Part shown: positions 5,201-23,029 of the stretch, piece after piece | Layout: each line of letters opens with the position of its first letter | How positions within the stretch are numbered: position 1 is the first letter of the stretch | Source of the DNA: an uncultured Eubacteriales bacterium | GTDB lineage: Bacteria > Acidobacteriota > Aminicenantia > Aminicenantales > Aminicenantaceae | NCBI GenBank assembly: GCA_964580235.1 | Contig: CAZOJY010000007.1 | Span: forward strand, 1 to 54,191 | Reading direction: 5' to 3' | Length of the DNA: 54,191 bases | Translations under genes and position numbers: made by a program | Notes under the pieces: generated by a model | The model's input: the letters and a program-made list of their open reading frames with translations, nothing else | What the model was told of the DNA's origin: nothing | Databases searched by the model: none

Positions 5201-8200
5201 TTAGAATCCCGGCATGATCGTGAACTGGAACACCCAGTTTTTGTTTGGCCTGTTGAAAGGCTTCACAGCATTAAATCCCATAATCAGGTATCCAAACAGA
5301 TTCATCCGGAGTCCGATGCCAGCACTTGTTAAAGGTTTGCGATTGCCACCCAAAAAAAATGGTTTATTTTCTGTGTCACCCTCAATTTCATATCCCCAAG
5401 CAATCCCGGCATCATAGAAGGCCACAAAATCCAACGGGAGAATGCCATAATATCCCCTGCCCAAACCGAGAACCCCAAATAGAGGAAATCGGAGTTCTAC
5501 ATTGGCGACGGCCATCTTGCTGCCGAATAGCTGCGCATAAACATCATTTTCGCTAAAACCAAAAGAAGATGAATTGTATCCCCTAAGCAGAGTTTCATAG
5601 CCTAAAAACAAGGGATAAAAACGGCTGTCTGTGGCATTATTGCCATAACGGCCATAATGCATAATGCGGAAAGCCAAAGTAAACGGCCGCACGGGCATGA
5701 AGTACCGTCGGTAATCTGCAAGAATCGAGGAAAAATTCAAATTGCCGCCAAAATAGGGCGTAAATTCGAGACGATAGCTCTGCCCCAGGATAGGTGCTGT
5801 GGCTCCGAAGAACGAGCTGTCATACACATAAGCTGCCGTGAAAAATCCGTAATACAGACTTTCCGGAGCATCCAATTCCTGTTTGTATTCATCCATAAAA
5901 AATCCCTCAACTGTATAAGCACGGGTGCGAACTTCTTGCTGGTAATCGATTAGCCGGTAGCCCGCTGACAGCTCGAACCGGCGGGATTGATTAAAAGGAT
6001 AAAAGGCAAAAATCGAGGCTTGATAATTGACCTGGCGAAAAATAAATTCTTCCTCGAGGAGAGCCACCTGGCCGAAGAAATCCCCGTATCCCACCGAATA
6101 TCCTCCGTACACATAAGGTATCCGCTGTACAACAGCTCCCCAATTCAATCTGCTCTTGGTATTTTGATATCCGGCTAAAAGGGCTGAATCCTCAACTCGG
6201 CTGTTTATCTGAGCCATGGTGAACACATTATGATAGCCAAGCATGTCGCTGAAGTTCAGCGTAATTCCGCCCCCTGCGTAGGTCCCAAACCGGTCTGTGC
6301 CTACGGCCATCTGAGCAGGGCTGACATAATCCAGAGCCAGCTTGGGCTTGTAATCCGAAACTTCAAAATCAGATTCTTCAGGCAATCCGTACATCGGATT
6401 GTTGAGAAGGGCCAGAACCTCTCCCTCGCTCTTTTTTCTCGGGGGAAGCAAAGATGGCGAGATATCTCCGAAATCACCGTTAGGCTTTTCTCCGGATAGA
6501 AGTTCAAGAGAATCGATAACATAGATGCTGTAGTTATCCTCCTGGTAGACGCTGTAAGCCATTTGGCCGGTCTTTTGTGCGACGGATAAGGCAGGGCTCT
6601 CGGCCGTGATCCCGCTCACACCTGTGTAAAGATTGGTCACCTGTGAAATCTCCTCGCTGGCAAGATCGATTCTGTACACATCTGGTATGCCGCTGCGATC
6701 GGAAAGAAAAAACAGGCTTTTTGAATCAGGAGCCCATTGGGGATTGATATGATTCGCTCCGAGGAATCCATGAATCTGCTCGATCTCGCCCGAGCGGGGG
6801 TCCAGAAGGGCCATCTGAAAGTCCCCAATATTGAGGAGAGAAAGATCCGTCGAGAAACGGTCTGTAACAAAAGCAATGGTTCGGCCATCAGGAGACCAGG
6901 ATGGATAAAGGTCGGAAAATGGATCATCTGTGAGTTTTCTAAGTTCTTCCGTTTCCAGATCAAACAAATAAATGTCTGATAATCCGCCATCAAGGGCTGA
7001 AAAAGCGATAAAGCGCCCCTCGGGAGACCAAGTTGGATTCAGAATCTCTCCTAGGTGTCCGAAAATTATCTCCTTTTCCCTCTTCCCGGTATCTGCATTG
7101 ACAATCACAAGCACAGGCTCACCTTTGGTAATCGCGCCAAAAACAAAATGCCTTCCCTCTGAATCCCAGGAACCAGAGGATTTTATGAACTGTAAACTTT
7201 CAAAATGCGGATTTGCGGCCGTCTTTATCAGCTTTCGAATGGTCCTTCCTGTTTTTGCATCAGCCAAATACATATCGATCGAAAACAGATCCCGGCTGCT
7301 GAGATAAACGACTTTGCTCCCATCCGGGCTGAGCATCGGAGACACATTATACCTGTTCTCTTCAGTCCCTTTAAAAAGAGGACGGCTGCCTCTTTCGACA
7401 AGCTGTGTGTGTTTGGCAATGGGCTCATATGCCTCATTCATAGCCTGGTGCCATTGCTTTGTCAGTGCTTCGAAATTCACGTTCAGCACCTTTTTCATCG
7501 CGGATTCCAGCTCCCCTACCCGGCTAACCTGTTTCAGCAGGGAAGGGACAGCCTCATCCCCCCATTTCCCAGTGATATAAGCCCAGAGGGACTGACCATA
7601 TCTGTACGGAAAATACTTATAGGGATCATCGAGTTTTTTGATTGTCGGGAGTTCTTTCCTCTGAGTGACATCCCTCATCCACATAGCAGTGTTTGGGTCA
7701 ACCGAACCGATGGACAGATATTCGGCCAGCCCTTCGACAAACCACAACGGAATACGCGCAATCCCCGGGTTGGCTCCGCCATAGCTGGATTGTCCCTGCG
7801 AGGTCATATCATACTGGAATGCGTGGACAAGTTCGTGCCCGATCACACGATCCGTCGAATCCAGAGAGCCCGTGACTGGCAGGATAATCCGCCTCTTGAA
7901 TGACTCGGTCACACCTCCTGTCCCTTCTCCGATAAATCCGGGGATAGCGGCCGTCTGTTGAAAATCAGAAGAACTCGCATAAAGAATCAAAGGCTGACGC
8001 CCTTTGAGTTTATGATTGAGCAGACGTGACAGGCGGGCATGCCATCTTTCTGCCATCCGGGCGGCCTGTGTTGCCGCTTTTTCCATTTCAGGATAAAAAT
8101 AGACATCAAAGTGCTGTGTCTTCAAGATTTTAAAATCGAACTTGTCATACTGCACCTTATTCCGTCCAAAATACTGGGCATGAGCAACAGACGCTGTTGA

Positions 8201-8263
8201 TGCTATTCCTAAAGAAATTATTGTCAATATCGCGAAAAATCGTGAAACATAACGGGCAAACAT
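5201..8263 (-). CDS. Outer-membrane protein: N-terminal HExxH peptidase-like domain + PD40/TolB-like propeller + C-terminal BamA/TamA (Omp85) beta-barrel
   Basis: Start moved to ATG 8263 (GGAGG SD); signal peptide; GHELVH; repeated PxWSPDG; barrel motifs LRGY, NVELRFP, GIGLR and C-terminal F. Confidence 0.85.
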   Translation of the reverse strand: MFARYVSRFFAILTIISLGIASTASVAHAQYFGRNKVQYDKFDFKILKTQHFDVYFYPEMEKAATQAARMAERWHARLSRLLNHKLKGRQPLILYASSSDFQQTAAIPGFIGEGTGGVTESFKRRIILPVTGSLDSTDRVIGHELVHAFQYDMTSQGQSSYGGANPGIARIPLWFVEGLAEYLSIGSVDPNTAMWMRDVTQRKELPTIKKLDDPYKYFPYRYGQSLWAYITGKWGDEAVPSLLKQVSRVGELESAMKKVLNVNFEALTKQWHQAMNEAYEPIAKHTQLVERGSRPLFKGTEENRYNVSPMLSPDGSKVVYLSSRDLFSIDMYLADAKTGRTIRKLIKTAANPHFESLQFIKSSGSWDSEGRHFVFGAITKGEPVLVIVNADTGKREKEIIFGHLGEILNPTWSPEGRFIAFSALDGGLSDIYLFDLETEELRKLTDDPFSDLYPSWSPDGRTIAFVTDRFSTDLSLLNIGDFQMALLDPRSGEIEQIHGFLGANHINPQWAPDSKSLFFLSDRSGIPDVYRIDLASEEISQVTNLYTGVSGITAESPALSVAQKTGQMAYSVYQEDNYSIYVIDSLELLSGEKPNGDFGDISPSLLPPRKKSEGEVLALLNNPMYGLPEESDFEVSDYKPKLALDYVSPAQMAVGTDRFGTYAGGGITLNFSDMLGYHNVFTMAQINSRVEDSALLAGYQNTKSRLNWGAVVQRIPYVYGGYSVGYGDFFGQVALLEEEFIFRQVNYQASIFAFYPFNQSRRFELSAGYRLIDYQQEVRTRAYTVEGFFMDEYKQELDAPESLYYGFFTAAYVYDSSFFGATAPILGQSYRLEFTPYFGGNLNFSSILADYRRYFMPVRPFTLAFRIMHYGRYGNNATDSRFYPLFLGYETLLRGYNSSSFGFSENDVYAQLFGSKMAVANVELRFPLFGVLGLGRGYYGILPLDFVAFYDAGIAWGYEIEGDTENKPFFLGGNRKPLTSAGIGLRMNLFGYLIMGFNAVKPFNRPNKNWVFQFTIMPGF

Positions 8264-8611
8264 TTTGTCCCTCCAAAATTTATGTGATTTCAATCTCTCA
8301 TCCGAATCAATTTCCTACTAATCCCACATGTTTTATAACAATTATTCATGCGGAAACGTTGCAAAATCGGTTGGTATCGTATTTTCTTCATCATTATTAG
8401 ACAATATATACATGATAATCCATTCCATGCAGACGTTCAATGAAAGCCTTTTAACTTTTGAGTCCAATGCAAAAAACATGCCAAATAGTTCCTCCTCTTT
8501 TTTCTGATAAGCGGAAATAAAGGTGTGTATGGATTTCAGGTCATCTGTCCTTAAAAAAATTCATTTGAAAAAACTGAGTATTGATGTAAAATTCTTCTGC
8601 CACAAGAGATC

Positions 8612-9369: not shown

Positions 9370-10887
9370 ATGGATGTTTTTGCCACAAATTTCCGGACTG
9401 TCGACTGGGTCATCGTCTGCGTCTATATCTGCATCCCCGTTGTTATCGGAATAATCGTCAAAAGATACATCCGGCAATTGAGTGATTTCATTGTTGCCGG
9501 CCGTTCGCTCAAGCTGTTCATCGCCATCGCAACTCTGACAGGAACAGAGCTGGGGCTTGTGACCGTCATGTACAACGCCGAGTTGGGATTTAAACATGGA
9601 TTTTCGGCATTCCATGTGGGAATCATCGAAATCTTCTGCATCCTGGCAATCGGAGTGACAGGTTTTATCGTCTATAAGCTTCGCCAGCTCCGGGTCATGA
9701 CCATTCCGGAGTTTTATGAACTCCGGTTTGGGAGAAATGTGCGGATTGTCGGAGGTATCATACTGGCCCTGGGAGGGATCCTGAATATGGGTCTGTTTCT
9801 CCAGGCAGGCGCTCGGTTCATGATGGGGGTGACCGGGTACAGCAATCCGGCGGGATTAAAGCTCTTCATGTCAGCCATGCTGACCATGGTGCTTGTTTAT
9901 ACGGTCCTTGGCGGTATGGTCTCTGTGGTTCTCAATGATTTCATGCAATTTGCGGTCCTTTCAATTGGGATGCTTGTCGGATCCTTTTTTGTAATATCCA
10001 AGGTTGGCTGGGGAAATCTCTTTAAGGCACCATCTGCAGTCGACAGTGCATCCTGGTTCAATCCCATCAGCGAAGGATCTGGATTCGGGAGCCTGTATGT
10101 GATTTTTATGGTAATTCTCACTTTCTCGGCAGGAGCACTGTGGCAGTCAGGAACCCTCCGTGCTCTTTCTGCCAAAACACCCAGGGTGGCGAAACAGCTC
10201 TATGCCTGGAGCTCTGTATCTTATCTTGCCCGTCGGGTCATCCCTATGCTCTGGGGCATCTGTGCCTTTATCTTCATTTCCCAAACACCCAAGCTTATGG
10301 CGGCCTTTCAAGGACCAGAGGCTTTGAATAGCCAATTCGGCATGCCCATCTTCATTGCCAAGGTGCTGCCCAGCGGCTTCTTGGGCCTGATCGCCGCCGG
10401 GATGTTTGCGGCTTTTATGTCCACCCATGACAGTTACCTGCTGAGCTGGAGCTCTGTGATCACGCAGGATATCGTCGCTCCGCTGAATAAGGACAGGCTT
10501 TCGGACAAAAGCCGCCTATTGATCACCCGGATTTGCATCGTAAGCATCGGAATCTTTTTGCTCATTTGGGGATTGTGGTTCGAGGCCCCTGTCTCGCTCT
10601 GGAATTACATGGCTGTCACCGGAACGATTTACCTCGCGGGGGCATTTACCGTGGTGACAGCAGGCCTATACTGGAAAAGGGCCAGCAAAACCGGAGCAAA
10701 AATCGCACTGTATGCCGGCCTTTTGGCCATCCTGGGAATAGGGCCATGGACAACAGGAACGAATGTCCCCTTTTATTTAAGCGATAAGTTTATCGGCCTC
10801 ATGACATTTGTGATTGCTTTCGTCGGGATGATCCTCGGATCGCTGTTATTCCCCGATAAAACCAAGCCAGAGGAGGAAGAGAGATGA
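9370..10887 (+). CDS. Sodium:solute symporter (SSS) family transporter
   Basis: About 13 hydrophobic segments; SDFIVAGR, MTIPEFYELRF, YTVLGGM, AAFMST motifs. Confidence 0.9.
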   Translation: MDVFATNFRTVDWVIVCVYICIPVVIGIIVKRYIRQLSDFIVAGRSLKLFIAIATLTGTELGLVTVMYNAELGFKHGFSAFHVGIIEIFCILAIGVTGFIVYKLRQLRVMTIPEFYELRFGRNVRIVGGIILALGGILNMGLFLQAGARFMMGVTGYSNPAGLKLFMSAMLTMVLVYTVLGGMVSVVLNDFMQFAVLSIGMLVGSFFVISKVGWGNLFKAPSAVDSASWFNPISEGSGFGSLYVIFMVILTFSAGALWQSGTLRALSAKTPRVAKQLYAWSSVSYLARRVIPMLWGICAFIFISQTPKLMAAFQGPEALNSQFGMPIFIAKVLPSGFLGLIAAGMFAAFMSTHDSYLLSWSSVITQDIVAPLNKDRLSDKSRLLITRICIVSIGIFLLIWGLWFEAPVSLWNYMAVTGTIYLAGAFTVVTAGLYWKRASKTGAKIALYAGLLAILGIGPWTTGTNVPFYLSDKFIGLMTFVIAFVGMILGSLLFPDKTKPEEEER

Positions 10888-11042
10888 ATTGGGTATTGTT
10901 ATGGAAAATAGTACTAATCTTTACTCTTTCAGGGTATTCTCTGCTGGTGATTATCGTTATTTTCGGAGGAGTAGGCAATATCGCAGACATGCTTCGCGAC
11001 CTCACAAATCCGCCAGATCAGGATCAGTCTGATAGAAGTTGA
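10884..11042 (+). CDS. 52-aa single-pass membrane protein coupled to the SSS gene (not in the ORF track)
   Basis: MNWVLLWKIVLIFTLSGYSLLVIIVIFGGVGNIADMLRDLTNPPDQDQSDRS; ATGA overlap with the SSS stop; GGAGG SD upstream. Confidence 0.75.
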   Translation: MNWVLLWKIVLIFTLSGYSLLVIIVIFGGVGNIADMLRDLTNPPDQDQSDRS

Positions 11043-11060
11043 ATAATCCATCTTTTGTCT

Positions 11061-12206
11061 TTAAATCTTGATAAATATCTTTTTCCGGTATAAAGGAATC
11101 ATGATAACGACCCAGAAAGAAAGGAGCAACAAAGGGAAAAGAAGGGACCCGTTGAGGTGGCCGGCAAGCGGCACCAACAGATGATCATAGATATAAGGAT
11201 AGAGAGCCATTGATCCTTGGCCTGTCGAAACCTTTGTCGCGATCAGAAACTTCACCATAACCGTTGAACTTGCATAAACGAATATCGCGTTTGTGCCCAG
11301 AACGAGAAACGGGAAAGCCCATTTTTTTGTTCCAAAGCCTTCCATTAGCCCAAAACATATGCTGAAAAGCATCAACGCCGCTCCCGCCGTAAAAAGCACA
11401 TAAGTGCTTGTCCAGAGCTGTTTGTTTATCGGAAAAACCGGATGAAGCAGCAGCCCCGAAGCTGTCAGAATGATCCCAAAAGTCAAAAGTCCGCCCGATT
11501 TCTGGAACACACTCTTGGAGGAACGGAGCCAATCCCCTGCCAGTGTTCCGAGCAAAGTGGTCGCAATGGCTGGAAAGGTGCTGAGTATCCCTTCCGGATC
11601 GAATTGAAGCTTGTACAAGTGCCCTCCCAGAACTCTTGTATCGATGTACCCGCAGAGGTTTCCTTGATAATCCCAAACGCCTGGTCCATACCCAGGAACT
11701 GGAACAAATTTCATCACCATATAATAGCCGGCCAGGAGAAAAATAACGATGGCGATTCTTCCTCGGGTCCTCACTTTCGAAAAAATCAGAGCCGAAGCAA
11801 AATAACAGATAGCGATGCGCTGCAGGACTCCCGGAATCCGGAGATGCGTAAATTCAAAGCGAAACAGCAACCGAAGTGCAATCCCGAGAGCGAAAAGGAT
11901 GAGACTTCTCCGGAATATTTTTGTGTACAGAGCGAAAGATCTGCCTTCTCGCTCCATTCTTTTCGTTAGAGCCAGAGAAATGGAAACACCGGCAATGAAC
12001 AGGAAAAAGGGGAAAATGAGATCTGTTGGTGTCCAGCCATGCCAATTGGCGTGACGGAGAGGAGCATACACATGCTGCCAGCTCCCGGGATTGTTCACCA
12101 AGATCATTCCGGCAATGGTGATGCCGCGGAACGCATCCAAGGAGGAAAGCCGGAGCCCAAAACCGGCCTCGCAGCTGCCCGTATTTCTCCTTTCCTCCCG
12201 CATCAT
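11061..12206 (-). CDS. nagX: Heparan-alpha-glucosaminide N-acetyltransferase-like (DUF5009/NagX) membrane protein
   Basis: RLSSLDAFRG, MILVN, HANWHGWTPTDLIFPFF, PGVLQRIA, DPEG, PINKQLWT motifs; start at 12206 by ATGA coupling to the GH20 stop. Confidence 0.85.
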   Translation of the reverse strand: MMREERRNTGSCEAGFGLRLSSLDAFRGITIAGMILVNNPGSWQHVYAPLRHANWHGWTPTDLIFPFFLFIAGVSISLALTKRMEREGRSFALYTKIFRRSLILFALGIALRLLFRFEFTHLRIPGVLQRIAICYFASALIFSKVRTRGRIAIVIFLLAGYYMVMKFVPVPGYGPGVWDYQGNLCGYIDTRVLGGHLYKLQFDPEGILSTFPAIATTLLGTLAGDWLRSSKSVFQKSGGLLTFGIILTASGLLLHPVFPINKQLWTSTYVLFTAGAALMLFSICFGLMEGFGTKKWAFPFLVLGTNAIFVYASSTVMVKFLIATKVSTGQGSMALYPYIYDHLLVPLAGHLNGSLLFPLLLLSFWVVIMIPLYRKKIFIKI

Positions 12207-14872
12207 CTGTGAATTTTTCCCCAAAGTTTGATGCCGCCAAAACTACCGGTGTCATCAAACGACCCCACGCCGACCAGCCCATGCCCCAGGCTAGCATCTG
12301 TGGCTGTTAAGATCGGGACTTTCATGTCGTCCAGATAGGCTCTGATTTCACCGGTCCCGGCATTGCAGGTGACCCTGAATTCATGAAATTTCATGTCGGT
12401 CAGACGAAAAACGGACTGTCCCGCCGGTTCGTGATTGATCTTCACTCGGTCTTTTCCATTCACGATGCCGATGATATTGTGGTTTTCATCGCTGACAGCC
12501 GAAAAGTGAACATAATAAAAGTGAGAGGGATCTTGATAATGGAAGACAACGACCATATCCCGATTTGGATTATCGAGAGGTGCGCTGCATTTGAGATACC
12601 CAGAAAAAAGAAAATCAGAAACATTAAAATTCTGCAGGACCGACCAGGAGGTAGGAGCTTTCACTTCTCCTTGAAGTCCAGGAACCAGGAGCTGGTAGCA
12701 CCGGCGCCCCATTTCTTCGCCGACCTTCCAGTTTTCCGGAACATTCGGCTCCCAGCCGTGAGCTTTCTCATCCTTAAAATTATCGCTTCCCAATGGAGGC
12801 CGGGCGGTTTCGACCAGCTTTTGGATGGCCGGCGCGATTTTGAGGACACATTCATATTCGGGCTTTTCCGGACGGCTCAAAACACCAAAGACTGCGTCCA
12901 GCCAGGAGAGTGGAGCTTCCTGTCCTTTTTCGATAAAATCCATGGCCCGGAGACCTGCCTCGGCCAAAACAGATACATCCTCTGAGAGCGGGATAATCTC
13001 TTTCAGCAAGGCTGACTCTTCGAGCACTGGCTTTAAAACATCATGGTTGTCCCGCCATATAGACAACCGATGCTGGATTATTTCTGTATTAGTTTTATAA
13101 TTTGGAGCATCATCCAGAAAGCCCTCCACCATATTCTCAAATTCCCGTGCCACATGACTTTCAGGACGGGCGGCATCCACCAGCCGGATCAAGGGTGTCA
13201 TTTGGGTATACTCGTACGTTCCTGGCCGCGTATAATATTTGACCGGCTCCACGATATCTGCCACATTTTTTAGCGCATCGATAGGATGTTCTCCTGCAAG
13301 TCTTTTTAACATAAGAGGATAATTGGCACGATGCTTCAACCCAAAGACATCCAGTCTCGGACCTAGATGTTCTAACCTACGATACATATCGTTCACATCG
13401 ATTAGGCCTTGAGGAGACCAGAACCTCTCAGCAATCGCCGCAGCTCTTGGCCAGATCCGTGAGTCAACGGTCTCGGGCCCGACAAACTCACCCCACATGC
13501 AGGCCTCTCCGCCCAAAATGCGGGATTTTTCCTTTTTTGTCAGGTCGGCCGCATCGCCACTAAGAGGATCCACATGATAATGATAGGCAGCAGACAGCAT
13601 ATGATCCAGATAATATCCGTTGGATAAAATTCCCAAGTAGCCCTCCCTGGCTGTCCTAGCCAAGGATTTTGTCCCGCGCCAGCTCTGCACAACCACATCT
13701 TTCGGCAGATCAGGATGGAAAATCTCATCCCACCCGATCATCTTTTTTCCATGTTTTTGAACGATTGTCAGAATTCTTTTGTTAAAATATGCCTGCAAGT
13801 CCTGGTTGTTTTTCAGGCCTTTCTGTTTTTTAAATGCCACAATATTTGGATTGCTGTTCCAGAGTTTACCGCTCACTTCGTCTCCACCGATGTGGAAATA
13901 GGCATCCGGAAAAAGTCCGGCCATCTCACCGATAAAAGTCTCCAGAAAAGCATAAACCTCTTCTCGGGTCGGGTCCATGCAGGGATCATGTACGCCCCAG
14001 TACCGCTCGATGGCAAAAGGTCCTGAACCGCTGGCTAACTCTGGATAACCAACAAACCAGGCAGTCGTGTGTCCGGGAATGTCAAACTCCGGAACAACCC
14101 GGATCCCAAGGTTCCGCGCATAATCCAGTATTTCCCGCACCTGTTCCTGCGTAAAATAGTGGCCGTCAGAACCCATTTCATGAAGTTTGGGAAAGCTTTT
14201 GCATTCCACCCGGAAACCTTGATCTTCGGAAAGATGCCAGTGCAGGACGTTCAATTTTACAGCAGCCATTCCATCCAGGTTTCGTTTGATCACTTCCACA
14301 GGTAGCCAGTGACGGCAGACATCGATCAACAATCCTCTCCAAGGAAATCGGGGCTTATCCTGTATCCTGACAGCCGGCATATAAAGACCTTCAGCATCCT
14401 TTTCTATGAGCTGGAAGAGCGTTGCAAGGCCTCTTAAAATACCAACTGGGGTTGGTGCTTTTAGCACGGCCCGAGATGAACTCACATGAAGGGAGTAGGA
14501 TTCATCTTCTTTTACTGACTGGACCTCTTCCCCCGGGTCATAGCATTGTATCTTGAGAAGAGGTGACGCGGCACCTGAATCCAGTTCTCGAATTGGCACA
14601 CGGAGGATTCCGGCCAGATCCTGCATATGCCGATTGAAACGCTTGACAGCTCGCAAAAGACGCAATTCTTTGTGTCCTTTCCAGGTCACACGGAATCCAT
14701 ATGTTATGCGGAGCTTTCCAGATTCAACAGATATTTCTGCGGGCCAGGGCATCAACTGAAACCGGGAAAAATCTTTGTCAGATTTTTGTTTGCCCTGACA
14801 AAACATCATGAACAAGGTTACAAAAAATACAAAAAAGAGAATTGATCGCGGCTCTTTTAATTTCATCATCAT
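12203..14872 (-). CDS. Beta-N-acetylhexosaminidase (GH20) with an extra C-terminal beta-sandwich domain
   Basis: RGLLIDVCRH, LHWHL, PEFDIPGH, catalytic HIGGDEV, GGEACMWGE, WPRAAAIAE; export signal; about 190 extra C-terminal residues. Confidence 0.93.
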   Translation of the reverse strand: MMMKLKEPRSILFFVFFVTLFMMFCQGKQKSDKDFSRFQLMPWPAEISVESGKLRITYGFRVTWKGHKELRLLRAVKRFNRHMQDLAGILRVPIRELDSGAASPLLKIQCYDPGEEVQSVKEDESYSLHVSSSRAVLKAPTPVGILRGLATLFQLIEKDAEGLYMPAVRIQDKPRFPWRGLLIDVCRHWLPVEVIKRNLDGMAAVKLNVLHWHLSEDQGFRVECKSFPKLHEMGSDGHYFTQEQVREILDYARNLGIRVVPEFDIPGHTTAWFVGYPELASGSGPFAIERYWGVHDPCMDPTREEVYAFLETFIGEMAGLFPDAYFHIGGDEVSGKLWNSNPNIVAFKKQKGLKNNQDLQAYFNKRILTIVQKHGKKMIGWDEIFHPDLPKDVVVQSWRGTKSLARTAREGYLGILSNGYYLDHMLSAAYHYHVDPLSGDAADLTKKEKSRILGGEACMWGEFVGPETVDSRIWPRAAAIAERFWSPQGLIDVNDMYRRLEHLGPRLDVFGLKHRANYPLMLKRLAGEHPIDALKNVADIVEPVKYYTRPGTYEYTQMTPLIRLVDAARPESHVAREFENMVEGFLDDAPNYKTNTEIIQHRLSIWRDNHDVLKPVLEESALLKEIIPLSEDVSVLAEAGLRAMDFIEKGQEAPLSWLDAVFGVLSRPEKPEYECVLKIAPAIQKLVETARPPLGSDNFKDEKAHGWEPNVPENWKVGEEMGRRCYQLLVPGLQGEVKAPTSWSVLQNFNVSDFLFSGYLKCSAPLDNPNRDMVVVFHYQDPSHFYYVHFSAVSDENHNIIGIVNGKDRVKINHEPAGQSVFRLTDMKFHEFRVTCNAGTGEIRAYLDDMKVPILTATDASLGHGLVGVGSFDDTGSFGGIKLWGKIHR

Positions 14873-16059
14873 CTCGGTTTCCTTGCTGAATTTTTTCCCA
14901 ACTTCTTCTTTACAGATTTCCCCTTGAAAATGGTGTCCAGCACCTGGAATTCTTGATCAAAAACAGCAACATTAGCGAGCTTGCCCTTTTGGATGCTTCC
15001 AATTTTATTTTCCAAACCGAGAATGCGCGCAGGATTTAAAGAAGCCATATTTATGGCTTGGTTTATCGTCACATCAGTCCAATCGATCATGTTTTTTACG
15101 GCTCTAATCAGGGTCAAAACACTTCCGGCCAAAACTCCGCTTCTGCGGATTGCTGCTTTGTTGTTCTTGACTTCTATTTCATTGTCACCCCAATGATAAA
15201 CACCATTCCCCACTCCTGAGGCCATTATCGAGTCAGTCACCAGACAAATATTTTTCGTTCCTTTTTTAGCCACGGCCAGGCGTAAAGCTGCTGGATGCAC
15301 ATGGATGCCATCAGCGATAAGTTCAGCCATTATGTTTTCGGTATCCAGCACTGCCCCGACAACACCCGGTTCTCTGTGGTTAAACCCGCTCATCGCATTA
15401 AAAAGATGGGTGGCGAGGCTTACGCCTTTTTCGAAACTCTCCACCGCTTGATGGAAGTTTGCGTTGCTGTGTCCAATAGCCACTACAAAACCATTTTTGT
15501 TTAACAAAGGAATAAACCGCATGTTGTTTTCGACCTCAGGTGCCAGGGAGAGGATGGATTTTAGGCCCTGAGTGGATTCGACCAATCGTTCACAATCCAT
15601 TTCGGTAATTCCTCTGATAAAAGAAGCCTGATGGACACCTTTTTTATGCGGACTCAAAAAAGGACCCTCAATATAGATTCCCAGGAGTTCAGATGGAAAA
15701 AGATCCATATTGGCATGTTTAATTATGTTGACGGTTTCGAGAACTGAGTCCATGGGTGCAGATATCGTGGCCCCCAGAAATCCAGTGACCCCATTTTTTG
15801 CCTGGTATTCTGCGATCCTTCGCAAGCTCTTTTCCTGATTGTCCATCACATCTTTTCCCAGAGCCCCATGGAGATGAAGATCCACCAGCCCTGGAACGAT
15901 GTATGCTTCGCCATAATCGATGAACTTGATCCCCTCATTCTGGAATTGATCCTTGCGGGCAAAAACTCCCAAAATTCTTTCTCCTTCTGCAACCACATAA
16001 CCCCTCTGGAGGATATCATCCGGAAGGATGATGTTTCCTCTGAAAGCGGTTTTATGCAT
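14869..16059 (-). CDS. nagA: N-acetylglucosamine-6-phosphate deacetylase
   Basis: PGLVDLHLHG, EGPF, APE, GHSNA, THLFNAM, DGIHV, TD motifs. Confidence 0.95.
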   Translation of the reverse strand: MHKTAFRGNIILPDDILQRGYVVAEGERILGVFARKDQFQNEGIKFIDYGEAYIVPGLVDLHLHGALGKDVMDNQEKSLRRIAEYQAKNGVTGFLGATISAPMDSVLETVNIIKHANMDLFPSELLGIYIEGPFLSPHKKGVHQASFIRGITEMDCERLVESTQGLKSILSLAPEVENNMRFIPLLNKNGFVVAIGHSNANFHQAVESFEKGVSLATHLFNAMSGFNHREPGVVGAVLDTENIMAELIADGIHVHPAALRLAVAKKGTKNICLVTDSIMASGVGNGVYHWGDNEIEVKNNKAAIRRSGVLAGSVLTLIRAVKNMIDWTDVTINQAINMASLNPARILGLENKIGSIQKGKLANVAVFDQEFQVLDTIFKGKSVKKKLGKNSARKPR

Positions 16060-16080
16060 GCTTGTCTTTCAGCCCGGATA

Positions 16081-16881
16081 TCAAGAATCCTTTTTTTCCC
16101 GGGACAAAAAATGGGATTTTTCCACTTCCCGTTTGTGTTCCAATACCCACAGGTAATAGTCTTTCCTCTTGAGAAGTTGCGCGGCTGCTTGATCGCAGAT
16201 GACTTTCACCCTGGGATGCAATTGAAGGACCGAAGCAGGACAGGAGGCAGTGATTGGCCCTTCGACCATTTGGGATATGGCCCGGACTTTTTTTTCGCCG
16301 GCCGCGACCAGGATGATTTCCTTGGCATCCATAATCGTCCCAATTCCCATGGTGATCGCAAATCTTGGTCCTTCTCTATTTCCAAAATTGTCTCTGATCG
16401 TCTCATCGGTTAACGTCTTTACACGTGTTCTTGCCTGGAGTGAAGAGGAAGGTTCGTTGAATCCGATGTGCCCATCTCTGCCGATGCCGAGAAGCTGGAT
16501 GTCTAACCCTCCCTTTGCTTTGATGGCCTCCTCATAGAGGTCGCATTCTCTCTCGACGTTCTCGGGTAAAGGATTGGGAATCAGGATGTTGTTTTTATTC
16601 ACATTCACATGCGAAAAAAAATTCCTGCGCATGTAGGAATGAAAGCTTAGGGGATCTTCCGGGTCCACTCCCAAATATTCATCCAGGTTGACGGTTGTCA
16701 CGGTGGAAAAATCCACGCGTCCCTTTTTATGATCTTTGATCAGATTTTTGTATATCCCAACCATGGTCTTCCCTGTGGCCAGCCCGAGAACCGCGCTGGG
16801 ATTTTTGCGAACGCAATCGACGATCCGAGAAGAAGCTTCTGCATAAACGTCTTTCTCGTTGGCTAAGATTATGATTTCCAC
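16081..16881 (-). CDS. nagB: Glucosamine-6-phosphate deaminase
   Basis: GLATGKT, NLDEY, LGIGRDGHIGFNEP, TMGIGTI motifs. Confidence 0.95.
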   Translation of the reverse strand: MEIIILANEKDVYAEASSRIVDCVRKNPSAVLGLATGKTMVGIYKNLIKDHKKGRVDFSTVTTVNLDEYLGVDPEDPLSFHSYMRRNFFSHVNVNKNNILIPNPLPENVERECDLYEEAIKAKGGLDIQLLGIGRDGHIGFNEPSSSLQARTRVKTLTDETIRDNFGNREGPRFAITMGIGTIMDAKEIILVAAGEKKVRAISQMVEGPITASCPASVLQLHPRVKVICDQAAAQLLKRKDYYLWVLEHKREVEKSHFLSREKKDS

Positions 16882-18219
16882 TCAGATCTCCTCCATGATT
16901 TGTTCAAATACCTTTTTCGCCGATTCCTCGTTTTTTCCCTCGACCTGAATCCGGACAACGGGTTCTGTATTGGAAGGACGCACATGAAGCCAGAAATCAG
17001 GATAATCCGCCCTGAGGCCATCTATAATCTGAATTTTACCTTCGCTGAATTTCTTGCCGATTTTATTCAGGATCACCCGGGCTTCGCGGAATGAAGCTTT
17101 CACCTTGTGTTTGATCATAAAATAATCCGGGAGTTCCTTCCTCAGTTCAGAGACCTTTTTCCCGGACCAAGCCATATATTCCAGGAGAAAGGCCATGCCG
17201 GCAAAGCTGTCCCGGCAGGTATGAACATCGGCAACCATAATTCCCCCGTTGCCTTCGCCCCCGATTTTTGCCCCATTTTCTTCCATCATCCGAGCAACAT
17301 TGATTTCTCCCACCCGTGACCGAAGCAGTTTTACACCTGCCTTTTGGGCGATATCTTCTATGACTTTGGATGTGGACAGATTGACCACAACTGGGCTCTT
17401 TTCCTTTTGCTGTAGGTAATAATTCACCGTGAGTGCCAGTGTATATTCTTCCCCGACCGGGACGCCATTCTCGTCTACGGCTGCCAGCCTGTCTGCATCC
17501 GCATCTTGGGCGAATCCCACATCTGCTTTGTATTCTCTTACTGTCTCACACAAAAGGTGCAGATTTGCGGCGACAGGCTCAGGGTTGCGCGGAAAACCTT
17601 CGCTCAACTCACAGTTCACACAGACCACTTCAGCTCCAAGTGTCTCGAGAAAATCCTTCACAAACGGAGACGCAGCACCTCCACAGGGATCGACAACCAC
17701 CCGCATCTTTTTTTGTTTAATGAGACTCGTATCAACAAGCCCCCTGATTTTTTTCTGATGAATCAAAAATGCTTCCTTCTCTATTTCGATTTTTTCCGGG
17801 TGTACCACCCGTTGGAACTTCCCTTGGTAATAAACATCCAACAGTTCTTCGGCTTCATAGGGATATAAATAATGCCCTCCTTTCCGTATCAATTTCAGAG
17901 CATTCCATTCGACCGGATTGTGGGATGCGGTTATAGATACTGCCCCATCCAGTTTTTTTTCTCTGGTGTAAATCTGGAGCGATGGAATCGGCAGAATCCC
18001 CACGTCCATGGGGGAAGCGCCACAGGAAAGGAGGCCTGCAAACACCGCATTTTTTACCATTTCCGCAGAGGGGCGGGTGTCTGAACCAACAGCGATTTTG
18101 CCTCCACCGATGTATGTGGAAAAAGCCTCAGAAAATTTTATGATCAACTGGGGTGTCAGGCTGGCTCCGACAATGCCCCGGATACCGGAAATACTGATTT
18201 TAAGGTCTGAAATTCTCAA
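16882..18219 (-). CDS. glmM: Alpha-D-phosphohexomutase (phosphoglucosamine mutase/phosphomannomutase), intact active site
   Basis: SISGIRG, phosphoserine loop ITASHNP, metal loop DADADR, GGEGNGG, RPSNTEP; exact sugar specificity uncertain. Confidence 0.8.
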   Translation of the reverse strand: MRISDLKISISGIRGIVGASLTPQLIIKFSEAFSTYIGGGKIAVGSDTRPSAEMVKNAVFAGLLSCGASPMDVGILPIPSLQIYTREKKLDGAVSITASHNPVEWNALKLIRKGGHYLYPYEAEELLDVYYQGKFQRVVHPEKIEIEKEAFLIHQKKIRGLVDTSLIKQKKMRVVVDPCGGAASPFVKDFLETLGAEVVCVNCELSEGFPRNPEPVAANLHLLCETVREYKADVGFAQDADADRLAAVDENGVPVGEEYTLALTVNYYLQQKEKSPVVVNLSTSKVIEDIAQKAGVKLLRSRVGEINVARMMEENGAKIGGEGNGGIMVADVHTCRDSFAGMAFLLEYMAWSGKKVSELRKELPDYFMIKHKVKASFREARVILNKIGKKFSEGKIQIIDGLRADYPDFWLHVRPSNTEPVVRIQVEGKNEESAKKVFEQIMEEI

Positions 18220-19556
18220 AATCTCATCCTGTCTCTTAGCTCATCTTCGACCGATTCCACGTCTTCCACTTTATCCCCTTCGATCGATATCCGCAAAACG
18301 AATTCTGTCGAAGAAGGCCTTATGTTGAACCAAACGTCATTTCTTTCCACACGGATGCCATCCGTGTAATCAGGATTTTCTCTGGAGTAGATCTCTTCAA
18401 GCCAGTCCATAACTCTGTATGTTCTCTCTGGCGGAACATCGATTTTGATCTTTTTCATGTGCTTTTCAGGAAATAGGGCTGTCAATGCGGAGAGGGATTT
18501 TTCTTCCCTAGCCATAAAATCTAAGATCAAGGCCAGAGCCAACAGGGAATCATATCCAAGTGAAAAATTCAACAGGCAAAGGCTGCCGCTCCCTTCCCCT
18601 CCCACTCCAGCACCCACAGACTCCATGACATGAACCACCGAAGATTGTCCGACCTTAGTGCGCGACAGGTCAATCCCGGTGTTTCGTGCAGCCCAATCCG
18701 CCCATGATGTGGTAACGGCCGTGGTAACGGCTTTGGAGATCCGGCCCTTCATAGAAAGGAGAATAAGTGGAAAGGTCATTTCCTCACTCAATGCTATTCC
18801 TTTCTCACTGACAAAAGAGATGCGGCTTCCGTCGGAATTCAACAAGAAGCCGATGTCTGCTCCGATGGACTTCACGACAGCTTCCACCTGAGAAGCATTT
18901 TCGACAGAGGGTTCGGGCGGATGGGGAAAGGGCTTTGCTGGGGTGTCATGAATTGGGATGAGATCGAGGTTGAAAAAATCACCATAGTGCTTCAAATAGG
19001 ACGAGGAGGCTCCATTACAGGGGTCGGCAACCACTTTGTAGTGCTTTTCCCTGATTCTTTCGGCATCGACAACGTGGGATAACTCATCGAGGTAGAGATT
19101 CATCGGGAACGTCATCGTCCGGGTTTGCCCAAGCTCCTTCCACGAAGCTTTTGTGAAACTGCCCGCTTCGTAGATGTTGAACACTTCCGCGCCTTCCGAA
19201 ATATCCAGGTAATCTCCTTCTGTGTCAAGGAGGATCACGGCATTCCAAGAAATCGGATTGTGCCCTCCTGTAATGGCAATCCCTCCCGAATATTTTTCCC
19301 TCCCCATCAAAAATTGCAAAAATGGCGTGGGAAGCAGCCCAAAGTCTGCGCAGTCCAAGCCCCCGGCAATGACCGATGAGAGAACGGCCATGGCGAACAT
19401 ATGGCTCGAGATACGGGAGTCCCTGCAGAGGGCGATCTGTCCCCTTTCGAAGGTGGAAGAAAAGGCCGAAGAAAATTTCGAAACCACTTCCACATTGAGT
19501 GCACCCGGCACTTCCCCCCGAATCCCCGAAACATTGATCCGAAGTCGATCCTTCAT
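18216..19556 (-). CDS. Second phosphohexomutase paralogue with a degenerate active site
   Basis: Same fold motifs (NVSGIRG, GGEG, RPSSTE) but ITGGHNP instead of ITASHNP and NSDGSR instead of DxDxDR; translationally coupled to the intact copy. Confidence 0.85.
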   Translation of the reverse strand: MKDRLRINVSGIRGEVPGALNVEVVSKFSSAFSSTFERGQIALCRDSRISSHMFAMAVLSSVIAGGLDCADFGLLPTPFLQFLMGREKYSGGIAITGGHNPISWNAVILLDTEGDYLDISEGAEVFNIYEAGSFTKASWKELGQTRTMTFPMNLYLDELSHVVDAERIREKHYKVVADPCNGASSSYLKHYGDFFNLDLIPIHDTPAKPFPHPPEPSVENASQVEAVVKSIGADIGFLLNSDGSRISFVSEKGIALSEEMTFPLILLSMKGRISKAVTTAVTTSWADWAARNTGIDLSRTKVGQSSVVHVMESVGAGVGGEGSGSLCLLNFSLGYDSLLALALILDFMAREEKSLSALTALFPEKHMKKIKIDVPPERTYRVMDWLEEIYSRENPDYTDGIRVERNDVWFNIRPSSTEFVLRISIEGDKVEDVESVEDELRDRMRF

Positions 19557-19592
19557 CTTGTTACTCTCTCACCTGCCATTTGAATCCTATGG

Positions 19593-19620
19593 ATTATATT
19601 TTCTTATACATCAAATCCAA
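19593..19620 (-). promoter_or_regulatory. Possible internal sigma70 promoter for the mutase-nag genes
   Basis: Minus strand: TTGGAT (19620-19615), 16 bp spacer, perfect TATAAT (19598-19593), 36 bp upstream of ATG 19556. Confidence 0.4.
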
Positions 19621-19733
19621 ATCCAAACTCAACAGGGAAAAAGACGGAAATTCCAAGACGACACACCCATTATCCCCGGCCCGAAACCAGTGTTTTGTAT
19701 TCACGGGAAGTGTGTGCTGTTCCCCTGCTCCTT

Positions 19734-20948
19734 TTATTTTATCAGAATCGAGCCGGCCACGACATTCGCCACCCGACTTCGCATGGAAACGATGTCTCCC
19801 TTGTCGTCAGGATGGACTCTGTTGGTTAAAAATATGACGATCGTTTCGGTATCGGGATCGATGATCAAAGAGGTCCCCGTATAACCCGTGTGGCCATAGG
19901 CATTCGGTCCAAACAGGTCGCCCTGATTGGTCGAATAGGCAGACTTTAAATCCCAGCCCAATCCGCGTCCGGCAAAATTGGTGATTCGATAGATTTCTGT
20001 CATCCGGTCCACGGCCAGAGGACTGAGAATTCGTTTTCCCTTATAAGTGCCATGATTCAGCATCATCTGGGCAAAAATCGCCAGGTCATCGGCTGTCGAA
20101 AACAGACCAGCATTTCCAGAGACTCCTCCCAGCAACCTTGCCAGAGGATCATGAACCACACCGACAAGAGGTTTCCCGCCATACACCTGGGTTGGCACAC
20201 ACGACGGCCAAAACTTTTTAGCAGGTGTGAAAAAAGTATGGTTCATCCCCAGCGGCGCGAATATGTTTTTCCTGGAAAATTCGGCTATGGTCTGACCCGA
20301 CACTTTTTTTACGATGTAGGATAACGTTATAAAACCCAGGCAGCTGTAGTGGAATTCTTGAGCCGGAGGATTGAGTTTCTGCAGATGGGCGATGTGATCG
20401 ACCATAGATTCCAGCGTAATCGGATAGCCATATTTGTCCTTCAAATCATCGGCATCCGTGTAAGGAGGGAGGCCGGATGTGTGGGTGAGTAGATGCCACA
20501 GGCGGGCATCCTCCCCGGCCTTACCTTCATCGTCGGTGTAGGCCACAAACTCCGGAACAAAGTCAGTCACCTTATCCCATAGCCGCAATTTTCCCTGCTC
20601 GACCAGTATCATGACAGATGTGGCCGTGGCGACAGGCTTTGTAATCGAAGCCAAGTCAAATATTTTCGATACATCCATCGGGACCAAATCCGGGACCCAC
20701 TGGCTGTGCCCAAAAGCCTTGCGCCAAACGGTCTTTCCCTTCCGAGCGATCAGAATAACCGCTCCAGGGAAGTCTTTCCGGTCGATGGCCTCGTTAATAA
20801 TTTTATCCACACGGGCAAGGCGGGCGGACGACATCCCAACCGACTCTGGCGCGTCGGAGGGCTCGAGTCTGGGTTTAGTTTGACACCCAAAAAAAAGAAT
20901 GAGCGAGAACAGGAAAGAAAAAATAAATAGTCTTGAAACTGATTTCAT
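19734..20948 (-). CDS. Serine hydrolase, beta-lactamase/AmpC-like family, lipoprotein (possibly AmiE/NamA-like muropeptide amidase)
   Basis: Lipobox FFGC; SxxK (ASITK), LLTHTSGL, YSC, HTGYTGT; start at ATG 20948 with GAGGAG SD. Confidence 0.85.
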   Translation of the reverse strand: MKSVSRLFIFSFLFSLILFFGCQTKPRLEPSDAPESVGMSSARLARVDKIINEAIDRKDFPGAVILIARKGKTVWRKAFGHSQWVPDLVPMDVSKIFDLASITKPVATATSVMILVEQGKLRLWDKVTDFVPEFVAYTDDEGKAGEDARLWHLLTHTSGLPPYTDADDLKDKYGYPITLESMVDHIAHLQKLNPPAQEFHYSCLGFITLSYIVKKVSGQTIAEFSRKNIFAPLGMNHTFFTPAKKFWPSCVPTQVYGGKPLVGVVHDPLARLLGGVSGNAGLFSTADDLAIFAQMMLNHGTYKGKRILSPLAVDRMTEIYRITNFAGRGLGWDLKSAYSTNQGDLFGPNAYGHTGYTGTSLIIDPDTETIVIFLTNRVHPDDKGDIVSMRSRVANVVAGSILIK

Positions 20949-21361
20949 GGAAATCTCCTCAGAATCTTGGCTCAACCATATTATACAAAAATTCTTCTGG
21001 CAACCGTTATGGTTTTCCCTCTCACAAAAACATCCACCAAATAAAATTCCTGATCCGTCGGCCTTTCCTTCTTTAGAAAGTTTGCTTTCAAGATTTCAAG
21101 TATACAAAAAGCGGCAAAGAATAACCACAATAGCATGGCCTCCCTGGGCATGGAGTTCATCCTCCCTCTCATTCATGCCTTCTTGTTCAACCTCTTCAGG
21201 CCCGGCTCGTGAAGAAGCCGGACATAATTGAACACGCATTTGACTTTGGACGATCGTTGTTTTATAAATCTCAGGCATTGTTTTTATTTTGTGCGGCACA
21301 ACGGCCCTTATGAATTACAAGTCAGCAATGCGTGCAGGGACATTGGAAAAATTTCCTTAAT

Positions 21362-23029
21362 ATGAGTCTAGGAATTCTTTCTGCACTCGCTTTTTTGCCC
21401 ATTCTCTCTGTGTTTGTCCTGATCGTTCTGTTCCGCTGGCCTGCCACTCGGGCTATGCCTGTAGCATATCTCATCACCATCCTTTTAGCCCTGCTCATGT
21501 GGAAAGTCCCGCTTGCCCAAATCGCTGCAGCCTCTTGCGATGGGCTCGTAACAGCAGCTTCGATTCTCTACATCGTTTTGGGAGCGGTCCTTCTTCTCAA
21601 CTTGATTCAGGAAAGCGGGGCCATCCATTCCATCCGCAAGAGCATGTTTTTAATTTCGCCTGACCGCCGGGTTCAAGCCATCATCATCGCTTTCTTTTTC
21701 GGCGCATTCATCGAGGGCTCAGCCGGGTTTGGCACTCCGGCCGCTGTGGCTGCTCCTCTTCTGGTTGCTGTGGGCTTTCCGGCCATGGCGGCAGTCATGG
21801 TCACCCTGATCATCCAGAGCACACCCGTTTCCTTCGGAGCTGTCGGCACACCAATCCTGATCGGTATCAACGCAGGACTGAGCGGCCAAGCCGAAGTTAC
21901 GGACTATTTGAATGCCCATTCCGCCGATTTTCCTGCCTATCTTCATGCCATCGGCGGCAAAGTGGCCATCATTCATGGGATCACAGGAACTCTTATCCCT
22001 CTCATCCTGGTGTTGATGATGGGCCGGTTTTTCGGTCAAAAGCGGAAATGGACAGATGGTCTTTCGATCCTGCCTTTTGCCCTTTTTGCCGGACTGTGTT
22101 TCACCATCCCCTACACGTTGACCGGTGTGTTTTTGGGGCCAGAATTTCCAACTCTTGTCGGTTCCCTCCTGGGACTGATGATTATCATTCCTGCCGCAAA
22201 ATCCGGCTTTCTCATCCCGAAGGATACCTGGGATTTTCCGAATCGAGAGACGTGGCCTTCCGAATGGGAAGGCCAAAAATTCAATACGAAAGTGCAAGCT
22301 CAAACAGGAACCGGCATTTTCAGAGCCTGGCTTCCGTATGTTCTTGTGGCAATTTTCCTTCTTGCCAGCCGCCTCTGGCCGTGGCTCAAGAATATCCTGG
22401 CCTCTATAACTGTGAACTGGCGGCAAATCTTTGGCTCTCAAGTGGACACCAGTTTTCAGCCTTTTTTCCTGCCCGGATTTCTGTTTTTAGTCGTGTCAGT
22501 TCTCACCATTTTTGCACAAAAAATGACTAAAACTATGGCTGCCAATGCCGTAAAACGGTCATTTCGTTTGCTCCTCGGCCCGACAATAGCCCTCGCATTC
22601 GCTGTTCCGATGGTCAAAGTTTTCATCAACAGCGGAATCCCTGGAGGACTGGATAAGATGCCTGTTGTTTTAGCCGCAGGAGCCTCCGCTTTGGTGGGGA
22701 AAGCCTGGGCAGGACTGGCAGCCATGATCGGAGCCTTGGGCGCTTTCATCGCTGGCAGCAACACGTTTTCCAACATGATGTTCAGCCTTTTTCAATTTGC
22801 TACGGCTCTCAAAACAGGAGCTGTTCCTGGGGTTATCGTTGCTCTCCAGGCTGTGGGAGGAGCTGCGGGAAATATGATCTGTGTGCACAATGTGGTCGCC
22901 GCATCAGCCGTCGTTGGATTGACCGGGAGAGAAGGGCACCTCATCCGCAAGACCCTCATTCCAATGATATATTACTTGATTGTGGCAACCTTCGTCGGGA
23001 TCATAATGCTTCAGATTTTTAAATTTTAA
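21362..23029 (+). CDS. lctP: L-lactate permease family transporter
   Basis: [46 protein letters not shown] motifs; start uncertain (21332 GTG or 21362 ATG). Confidence 0.9.

Follow-up and report, generated by a model that had tools for sequence, protein, structure and literature searches.

A phosphohexomutase paralogue without its catalytic residues, maintained next to an intact partner in Aminicenantes and other bacteria: a putative subunit of a hetero-oligomeric mutase

The window analyzed here, a stretch of 54,191 nucleotides from an uncultured bacterium of the Aminicenantaceae (contig CAZOJY010000007.1), encodes on its minus strand two adjacent paralogues of the alpha-D-phosphohexomutase superfamily. 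The upstream gene, here called UP (18216..19556, minus strand, ATG start, open reading frame (ORF) of 446 amino acids), codes for a putative non-catalytic subunit, and the downstream gene, here called DN (16882..18219, minus strand, TTG start, ORF of 445 amino acids), codes for a canonical partner mutase. An earlier note on this DNA had taken UP for a maintained pseudoenzyme tied to the intact paralogue, a view that has held up: the substitutions are conserved, the ratio of nonsynonymous to synonymous substitution rates (dN/dS) is low, the tandem recurs in other lineages and the two genes have diversified together. Sequence comparison leads us to favor, at somewhat better than even odds, the proposal that UP and DN form a hetero-oligomeric mutase in which one subunit binds ligand but does not catalyze.

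Members of the superfamily carry the phosphoserine in loop 1, the metal ion in loop 2, the sugar in loop 3 and the phosphate in loop 4 (PMC7761743). Re-translation of both genes confirmed the contrast from which the earlier note had started, ITGGHNP and NSDGSR in UP versus ITASHNP and DADADR in DN. In loop 1 of UP (ITGGHNP, 19254..19274, minus strand) the phosphoserine is replaced by Gly98, with His99 retained. In loop 2 (NSDGSR, 18822..18839, minus strand) the first Asp ligand of Mg is replaced by Asn and the third by Ser, the middle Asp and the Arg being retained. A further loss, absent from the earlier note, is that of a lysine: in an alignment to the Thermococcus kodakarensis structure 9du5, Ile108 of WNAVI (19233..19235, minus strand) stands at the Lys position of the conserved WNALK. 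The losses in UP thus comprise the Ser, the Lys and two of the three Mg ligands. The sugar-binding loop 3 (GGEGSG, 18585..18602, minus strand) and the phosphate-binding loop 4 (RPSSTE, 18303..18320, minus strand) are retained, and re-translation and full-length alignment agree with the earlier statement that GGEG and RPSSTE are kept and that the gene has no frameshift. Of the sequence features of an active mutase, UP therefore has loop 3 (GEGxG) and loop 4 (RxSxTE) and has neither the phosphoserine motif T(A/G)SHNP nor DxDxDR. DN possesses the Ser of loop 1 (ITASHNP, 17914..17934, minus strand) and the full Mg2+ site of loop 2 (DADADR, 17488..17505, minus strand), and also WNALK, GGEGNG and RPSNTE.

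The two proteins are 31% identical from end to end, and the domains PGM_PMM_I, II, III and IV score above the Pfam cut-offs in both. With TIGR03990, the family of archaeal-type phosphoglucosamine mutases (cut-off 439 bits), DN scores 485.8 bits and passes, and UP scores 341.3 bits and fails. The AlphaFold2 model of UP is an intact four-domain mutase (mean predicted local distance difference test score (pLDDT) 94.4, predicted template modeling score (pTM) 0.93), whose best structural match is the T. kodakarensis PGM/PMM (9du5) with a template modeling score (TM) of 0.90. Because it has Gly in place of Ser, has no Lys and keeps one of three Mg ligands, UP is predicted to be unable to form the phosphoenzyme or to run ping-pong phosphoryl transfer. 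With loops 3 and 4 retained, it has most likely remained able to bind a sugar phosphate or a sugar bisphosphate. We speculate that the former catalytic pocket, with Asn and Ser for acidic ligands and with Arg13, His99 and Arg245 kept, could hold a second phosphate.

A search of approximately 5.8 billion protein clusters yielded 120 clusters of UP orthologues with 50-85% identity, 114 of them full length and used for the residue counts. The names carried by the nearest matches point to Candidatus Aminicenantes, phylum Acidobacteriota. Position 98, that of the Ser, is Gly in all 114 and position 108, that of the Lys, is Ile, Leu or Val in all 114, whereas the Lys of WNALK is retained in 26 of 26 DN orthologues. 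Positions 240 and 244, those of the first and third Mg ligands, are Asn and Ser, respectively, each in 113 of 114 clusters. Asp242, Arg245, His99, Glu321 and Ser415 are kept without exception, Ser323, Arg413 and Thr417 in 113 clusters each and Arg13 in 112, the other two having gaps there. The closest homologues do not keep Ser and DxDxD; Gly98 and N-S-D-x-S-R are present in the orthologues across the whole identity range of 50-85%. Since the same changes are found in 114/114 full-length clusters, the substitution pattern of UP is not due to chance.

Pairwise Nei-Gojobori comparisons over 27 orthologous loci (dS 0.2-1.3) gave a dN/dS of approximately 0.07-0.17 for UP versus 0.065-0.15 for DN, with a median dN ratio of 1.2. 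UP is constrained almost as strongly as its catalytic neighbor, and the S-to-G and D-to-N/S changes, whose conservation with dN/dS below 1 the earlier note had proposed to test, are conserved in this way. To judge from these alignments, UP is a long-maintained paralogue and not a decaying gene. One pair of Aminicenantes species representatives showed a mosaic: between loci L025 (4990-6200) and L027, the 3' two-thirds of DN and the beginning of the following NagB gene match at 96-100% identity and UP and the DNA upstream of it at approximately 75%, with a dS of 1.78 for UP versus 0.15 for DN. The mosaic reflects either a tract of recent recombination or chimerism in a co-assembled metagenome-assembled genome (MAG).

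The UP stop was said to overlap the TTG start of DN, and it does. At the junction (18216..18230, minus strand; ...AGA TTT TGA) the TGA of UP (18218-18216) and the TTG of DN (18219-18217) share a 4-nt overlap, TTGA, with an AGGA (18227-18230) located 7 nt 5' of the TTG. An overlap of the type NTGA (ATGA, TTGA or GTGA) was found in all 26 orthologous Aminicenantes loci having both genes. UP and DN are translationally coupled. In a scan of positions 10800-21400 the counts of promoter-like sites were within about one standard deviation of shuffled controls and those of terminator-like sites somewhat above them; the scan revealed no convincing promoter or terminator in the UP-DN region, and no operon boundary was set.

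The order UP-DN is not peculiar to the window. A scan of Aminicenantes with one genome per GTDB species yielded 32 orthologue loci, 26 of which hold both genes, and in 26 of 26 UP is followed by DN and then, where the contig continues, by NagB; the remaining 6 contigs either break off within UP or a short way past it or are without a clean DN ORF. Another 48, more distant loci stem from other Aminicenantes, Blastocatellia, Pyrinomonadaceae and Vicinamibacterales. On contigs that reach far enough, a gene lacking the Ser codon ([AG]GHNP) is followed by a canonical gene (TASHNP, DMDADR), often near genes for GH20 and NagX-like proteins. Many Pyrinomonadaceae-type loci have an additional SMP-30/gluconolactonase-like gene in the middle of the tandem, with the Ser-less mutase gene on one side and the canonical one on the other (e.g., L054:8408-9355). 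The degeneration comes in two grades, the Aminicenantes type having lost the Ser, the Lys and two Asp and the Blastocatellia type the Ser only.

An exhaustive search of 1.8 billion representatives uncovered further Ser-less relatives, one subclade of which comes from Lentisphaerota and Victivallales. In Lentisphaerota the Ser-less gene overlaps the canonical mutase gene (ATGA) and the next gene encodes a HAD-IB phosphatase; in an unclassified bacterium the Ser-less/canonical pair is followed by an epimerase gene. The collection of tandem pairs that the earlier note had called for thus finds the dead-then-live arrangement in Aminicenantes, Blastocatellia-type Acidobacteriota, Lentisphaerota and an unclassified bacterium. 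Since the tandem recurs in differing gene neighborhoods, the pair appears to travel as a module independent of its neighbors. Among 301 evenly sampled genomes of Acidobacteriota, 22 had matches to the UP profile (E <= 1e-60), almost always exactly two adjacent genes, and in the source genome UP and DN alone reach this threshold. These comparisons indicate that the dead-then-live pair is retained under selection across at least two phyla.

In a FastTree phylogeny of the 150 best representatives, the proteins with N-D-S and without the Ser group together in a single clade (support 96) nested in a larger clade (support 98) that includes intermediate forms. An IQ-TREE analysis of 23 pairs plus outgroups showed the first and the second genes to be reciprocally monophyletic, with support values of 96 and 95 in the Shimodaira-Hasegawa-like approximate likelihood ratio test (SH-aLRT), and with matching subclades of Aminicenantes, UBA-type, Lentisphaerota and Blastocatellia sequences on both sides of the tree. 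The simplest reading of these trees would be one old duplication followed by co-diversification of both genes.

A metagenome scan with P0123 as query (loci L089-L163) showed that a member of the first clade which has kept the Ser (TGSHND, NVDGDR, Lys kept) also occurs in tandem with a gene of the second clade. In one sublineage of these Ser-keeping pairs it is the second gene that is degenerate (VSGGHGS; DGDAGR, DGDAVR or GGDADR; Lys replaced by Arg). Because Ser-keeping first genes are also paired, and because the second gene degenerates in this sublineage, pairing predates degeneration, and the site can be lost from either partner. Degeneration of the second gene is what one would predict for a complex that needs only a single active site. 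Across the wider clade the residue at the Ser position is G, A, Q, T or N.

The T. kodakarensis PGM/PMM, the nearest homologue with a solved structure, forms a stable D2 homotetramer (PMC11940775). An oligomer interface was therefore available to be inherited, and a duplicated subunit could replace its sister. In the mechanism that we propose, UP and DN would be synthesized at a constant ratio from a single mRNA with translational coupling and would assemble as alpha-beta or alpha2-beta2, in place of the homo-oligomer of their relatives. DN, with its phosphoserine, Lys and Mg2+ machinery, would catalyze the phosphoryl shift between the 1-phosphate and the 6-phosphate of a sugar, probably a hexosamine phosphate, and its reaction would feed or drain the steps catalyzed by NagA and NagB, which are encoded downstream (see below). 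UP, which retains the sugar-binding Glu and Ser, the phosphate-binding Arg, Ser and Thr, and Arg13, His99 and Arg245, would bind a sugar (bis)phosphate, acting as a structural subunit and, through a putative effect on DN, as a regulatory one.

A hetero-oligomer is favored because of the translational coupling, the invariable pairing across genomic contexts, the mirrored trees and the reciprocal loss of the active site. Several observations weigh against it. Two enzymes that catalyze successive steps of one pathway would also be expected to show conserved adjacency, coupling and co-phylogeny, and another reaction could make use of the invariant His99, Arg13, Arg245 and Asp242. In the Blastocatellia-type Ser-less protein the Lys is retained together with a metal loop of the form D-D-E, so that some chemistry is conceivable there, and Ser-to-Ala mutants of the Pseudomonas aeruginosa PMM/PGM were reported to have some residual activity, which a literature check on Ser108 mutants did not confirm. 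Tight coupling is not universal, Blastocatellia-type genes being spaced 10-70 nt apart or separated by the gluconolactonase-like gene. In one genome of Acidobacteriota (G159) the two matches to the UP profile (C2:376390-377685 and 232770-234089) are approximately 140 kb apart and may represent a split pair or two partial pairs. The naming of DN after TIGR03990, finally, comes from its hidden Markov model score alone.

If UP were repurposed, it would catalyze a different reaction on an amino-sugar phosphate, before or after DN and without forming a complex, for example with His99 as phospho-carrier or by metal-independent transfer or hydrolysis. This we consider unlikely. In its favor, His99, Arg13, Asp242 and Arg245 by the former phosphoryl-transfer site are invariant together with both ligand loops, UP is selected as stringently as a working enzyme would be, the replacements (Asn, Ser, Gly) are specific and conserved rather than random, and pathway neighbors are commonly co-inherited in the same way. 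However, the Ser, the Lys and two Asp, belonging to three separate catalytic elements, were lost together; the variation at the Ser position fits relaxed chemistry better than a new nucleophile; and the lineage-specific subsets of losses and the degeneration of the other gene fit one redundant site in a complex better. We know of no precedent for repurposed chemistry in the phosphohexomutase fold. Still a little less probable is that UP is a free-standing binder of sugar (bis)phosphates, whether as a sensor, buffer or chaperone for the activating bisphosphate or as a regulator of some other target, co-expressed with DN but without a stable complex. The retained ligand-binding loops are compatible with this, neutral hydrogen-bond donors in place of the acidic Mg ligands would admit phosphate to the old pocket, and Staphylococcus aureus GlmM regulates DacA by direct binding (PMC6368335; structures 7olh and 9g69). 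Strict pairing with one mutase clade across phyla and differing neighborhoods and mirrored phylogenies, however, exceed what a sensor needs, and a conserved third partner gene was not seen in the neighborhoods of the pairs examined.

The idea that UP was recently inactivated, a pseudogene with its frame still open and en route to loss, has next to nothing left to recommend it. It accounts for the missing catalytic residues only, and it is refuted by the orthologue survey, in which the same substitutions are shared by 114 of 114 clusters down to 50% identity; a dN/dS of about 0.1, a frame that is intact everywhere and a confidently predicted fold speak against it, as does the Ser-less clade, which is monophyletic, deep and spans phyla. 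Returning to the hetero-oligomeric mutase, a broader version of the proposal is possible, though we hold it with less than even confidence: the pairs may constitute an old, multi-phylum and so far unrecognized two-subunit family of alpha-D-phosphohexomutases, derived from a single duplication, in which one subunit keeps phosphoryl transfer and the pocket of the other now binds a sugar bisphosphate or another effector, either holding the activator or intermediate or gating flux allosterically, the losses having occurred independently, in grades and in either subunit.

The genes downstream of DN are on the same strand and tightly packed. The start of the gene for NagB, glucosamine-6-phosphate deaminase (16081..16881, minus strand; TIGR00502, 280.1 bits versus a cut-off of 236.9), abuts the DN stop, and NagB comes after DN in orthologous loci, too. 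It is followed by the genes for NagA, N-acetylglucosamine-6-phosphate deacetylase (14869..16059, minus strand; TIGR00221, 351.9 bits versus 225.65), for a GH20 beta-N-acetylhexosaminidase with an N-terminal signal/lipoprotein-like sequence (12203..14872, minus strand; PF00728, E = 1.4e-94), which has a 4-nt overlap with NagA, and for a NagX-like membrane protein of the HGSNAT family (11061..12224, minus strand; PF07786; best NCBIfam match NagX_SO_3504 with 202.8 bits, below the cut-off of 480). In the GH20 protein of 889 amino acids, Pfam covers residues 39-487 only, the C-terminal approximately 400 residues being without a family match. Upstream of UP, at a distance of 177 nt, lies the gene for a PBP4B-like lipoprotein with a beta-lactamase fold (19734..20975, minus strand; PF00144; PBP4B model 189.9 bits, below 385); whether it shares a transcription unit with UP is uncertain, and in loci L006-L009 it is upstream but non-adjacent. 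The gene for PBP4B of Escherichia coli (yfeW) belongs to the murQP operon for recycling of N-acetylmuramic acid. By analogy, a PBP4B-like gene at the head of the amino-sugar locus hints at a role of the locus in scavenging peptidoglycan-derived sugars.

The source genome encodes five members of the superfamily, including, on another contig, a bona fide bacterial GlmM (TIGR01455, 494.8 bits versus a cut-off of 447.55), which rules out UP/DN as the housekeeping GlmM, and two further members that are PMM/PGM-like. With a separate GlmM and two other members, the UP/DN pair is a specialized addition at an amino-sugar locus. In most Aminicenantes the order is a divergent NagA-like gene, UP, DN and NagB. 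The divergent NagA-like amidohydrolase gene abuts or overlaps the UP start (L010-L037; e.g., L016:4284-5402); its product scores 160 bits with TIGR00221 (cut-off 226) and is 26% identical to the NagA of the window. The window's own family is without a NagA-like gene before UP and has the canonical NagA gene downstream of NagB instead. The NagA-like/UP/DN/NagB unit would be compatible with a hexosamine 1-phosphate entering the NagA/NagB route or, alternatively, with glucosamine 6-phosphate being diverted to glucosamine 1-phosphate.

In the lineage with Ser-keeping first genes, a gene for an APH-family phosphotransferase of approximately 430-440 amino acids lies directly 5' of the pair (L123:3558-4880, L135:3627-4922, L155:3674-4993). 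The APH family includes anomeric sugar 1-kinases, and this protein, for which no NCBIfam match was found, may be an anomeric sugar kinase. An anomeric kinase of the APH type as the reason for a mutase in the present organism was discarded, no homologue having been found in the source genome (89.8% complete), which encodes two ROK-family kinases elsewhere. Other genes of the window, those for a multihaem c-type cytochrome (3580-5085, minus strand), a PD40/peptidase-MA protein of 1030 amino acids (5201-8293, minus strand) and an L-lactate permease (21332-23029, plus strand), have no apparent relation to UP/DN.

To our knowledge, an alpha-D-phosphohexomutase is regarded as either a monomer or a homo-oligomer, with catalysis by all of its chains. 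A full-text literature search of incomplete coverage turned up neither a prokaryotic member described as lacking the Ser nor a heteromeric phosphohexomutase, and the only pseudoenzyme or inactive paralogue of the superfamily that it brought up was PGM5. The archaeal-type mutases from T. kodakarensis (9DU5), Pyrococcus horikoshii (1WQA) and Sulfolobus tokodaii (2F7L), the PDB entries closest in sequence, share with UP the four-domain fold (TM 0.88-0.90) and the sugar and phosphate loops; they are homo-oligomers, the T. kodakarensis enzyme being the D2 tetramer, with Ser, Lys and DxDxD in every subunit, whereas UP is without these residues and below the family cut-off. The logic of adjacent paralogous sugar-phosphate genes is met with in an unrelated enzyme family: the ADP-glucose pyrophosphorylases of Firmicutes (GlgC/GlgD) and of plants (small and large subunits) are heterotetramers of catalytic and non-catalytic or regulatory paralogues.

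PGM5 (aciculin) of vertebrates is a member of the superfamily without mutase activity in which substrate binding is intact (PMC7761743). Like UP it is a maintained member, lacking mutase activity in the case of PGM5 and the catalytic residues in the case of UP. Unlike UP, it retains the phosphoserine, which has been seen phosphorylated, and the three metal-binding Asp, so that its inactivity is subtle, and it is a eukaryotic structural protein without an adjacent or coupled gene for an active partner. The S-adenosylmethionine decarboxylase prozyme of Trypanosoma brucei, a dead paralogue, forms a functional heteromer with its active sister and controls it (PMC5201418). Its logic is that of our model; fold, chemistry and kingdom differ, and the complex and the activation have been demonstrated there and would have their counterparts here by inference. 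GlmM binds the cyclic di-adenosine monophosphate cyclase CdaA/DacA (PMC6368335; structures 7olh, 7ojs and 9g69), which illustrates a phosphohexomutase fold acting through protein-protein binding. That GlmM is fully active and moonlighting, however, and no cyclase gene was found near the pairs examined here.

Public records name some of the Ser-less members phosphoglucosamine mutase or phosphomannomutase (e.g., P0413, P0414 and P0421). For proteins without phosphoserine and metal site this is likely to be over-annotation, which inflates the capacity for the UDP-N-acetylglucosamine or mannose pathways that is deduced from MAGs of Aminicenantes, other Acidobacteriota and Lentisphaerota. If our proposal is correct, the UP/DN pair would enlarge a well-studied superfamily by a heteromeric architecture and by a pseudoenzyme from prokaryotes and would provide a natural system for the role that a mutase active site can have without chemistry, be it ligand sensing or the retention of a bisphosphate.

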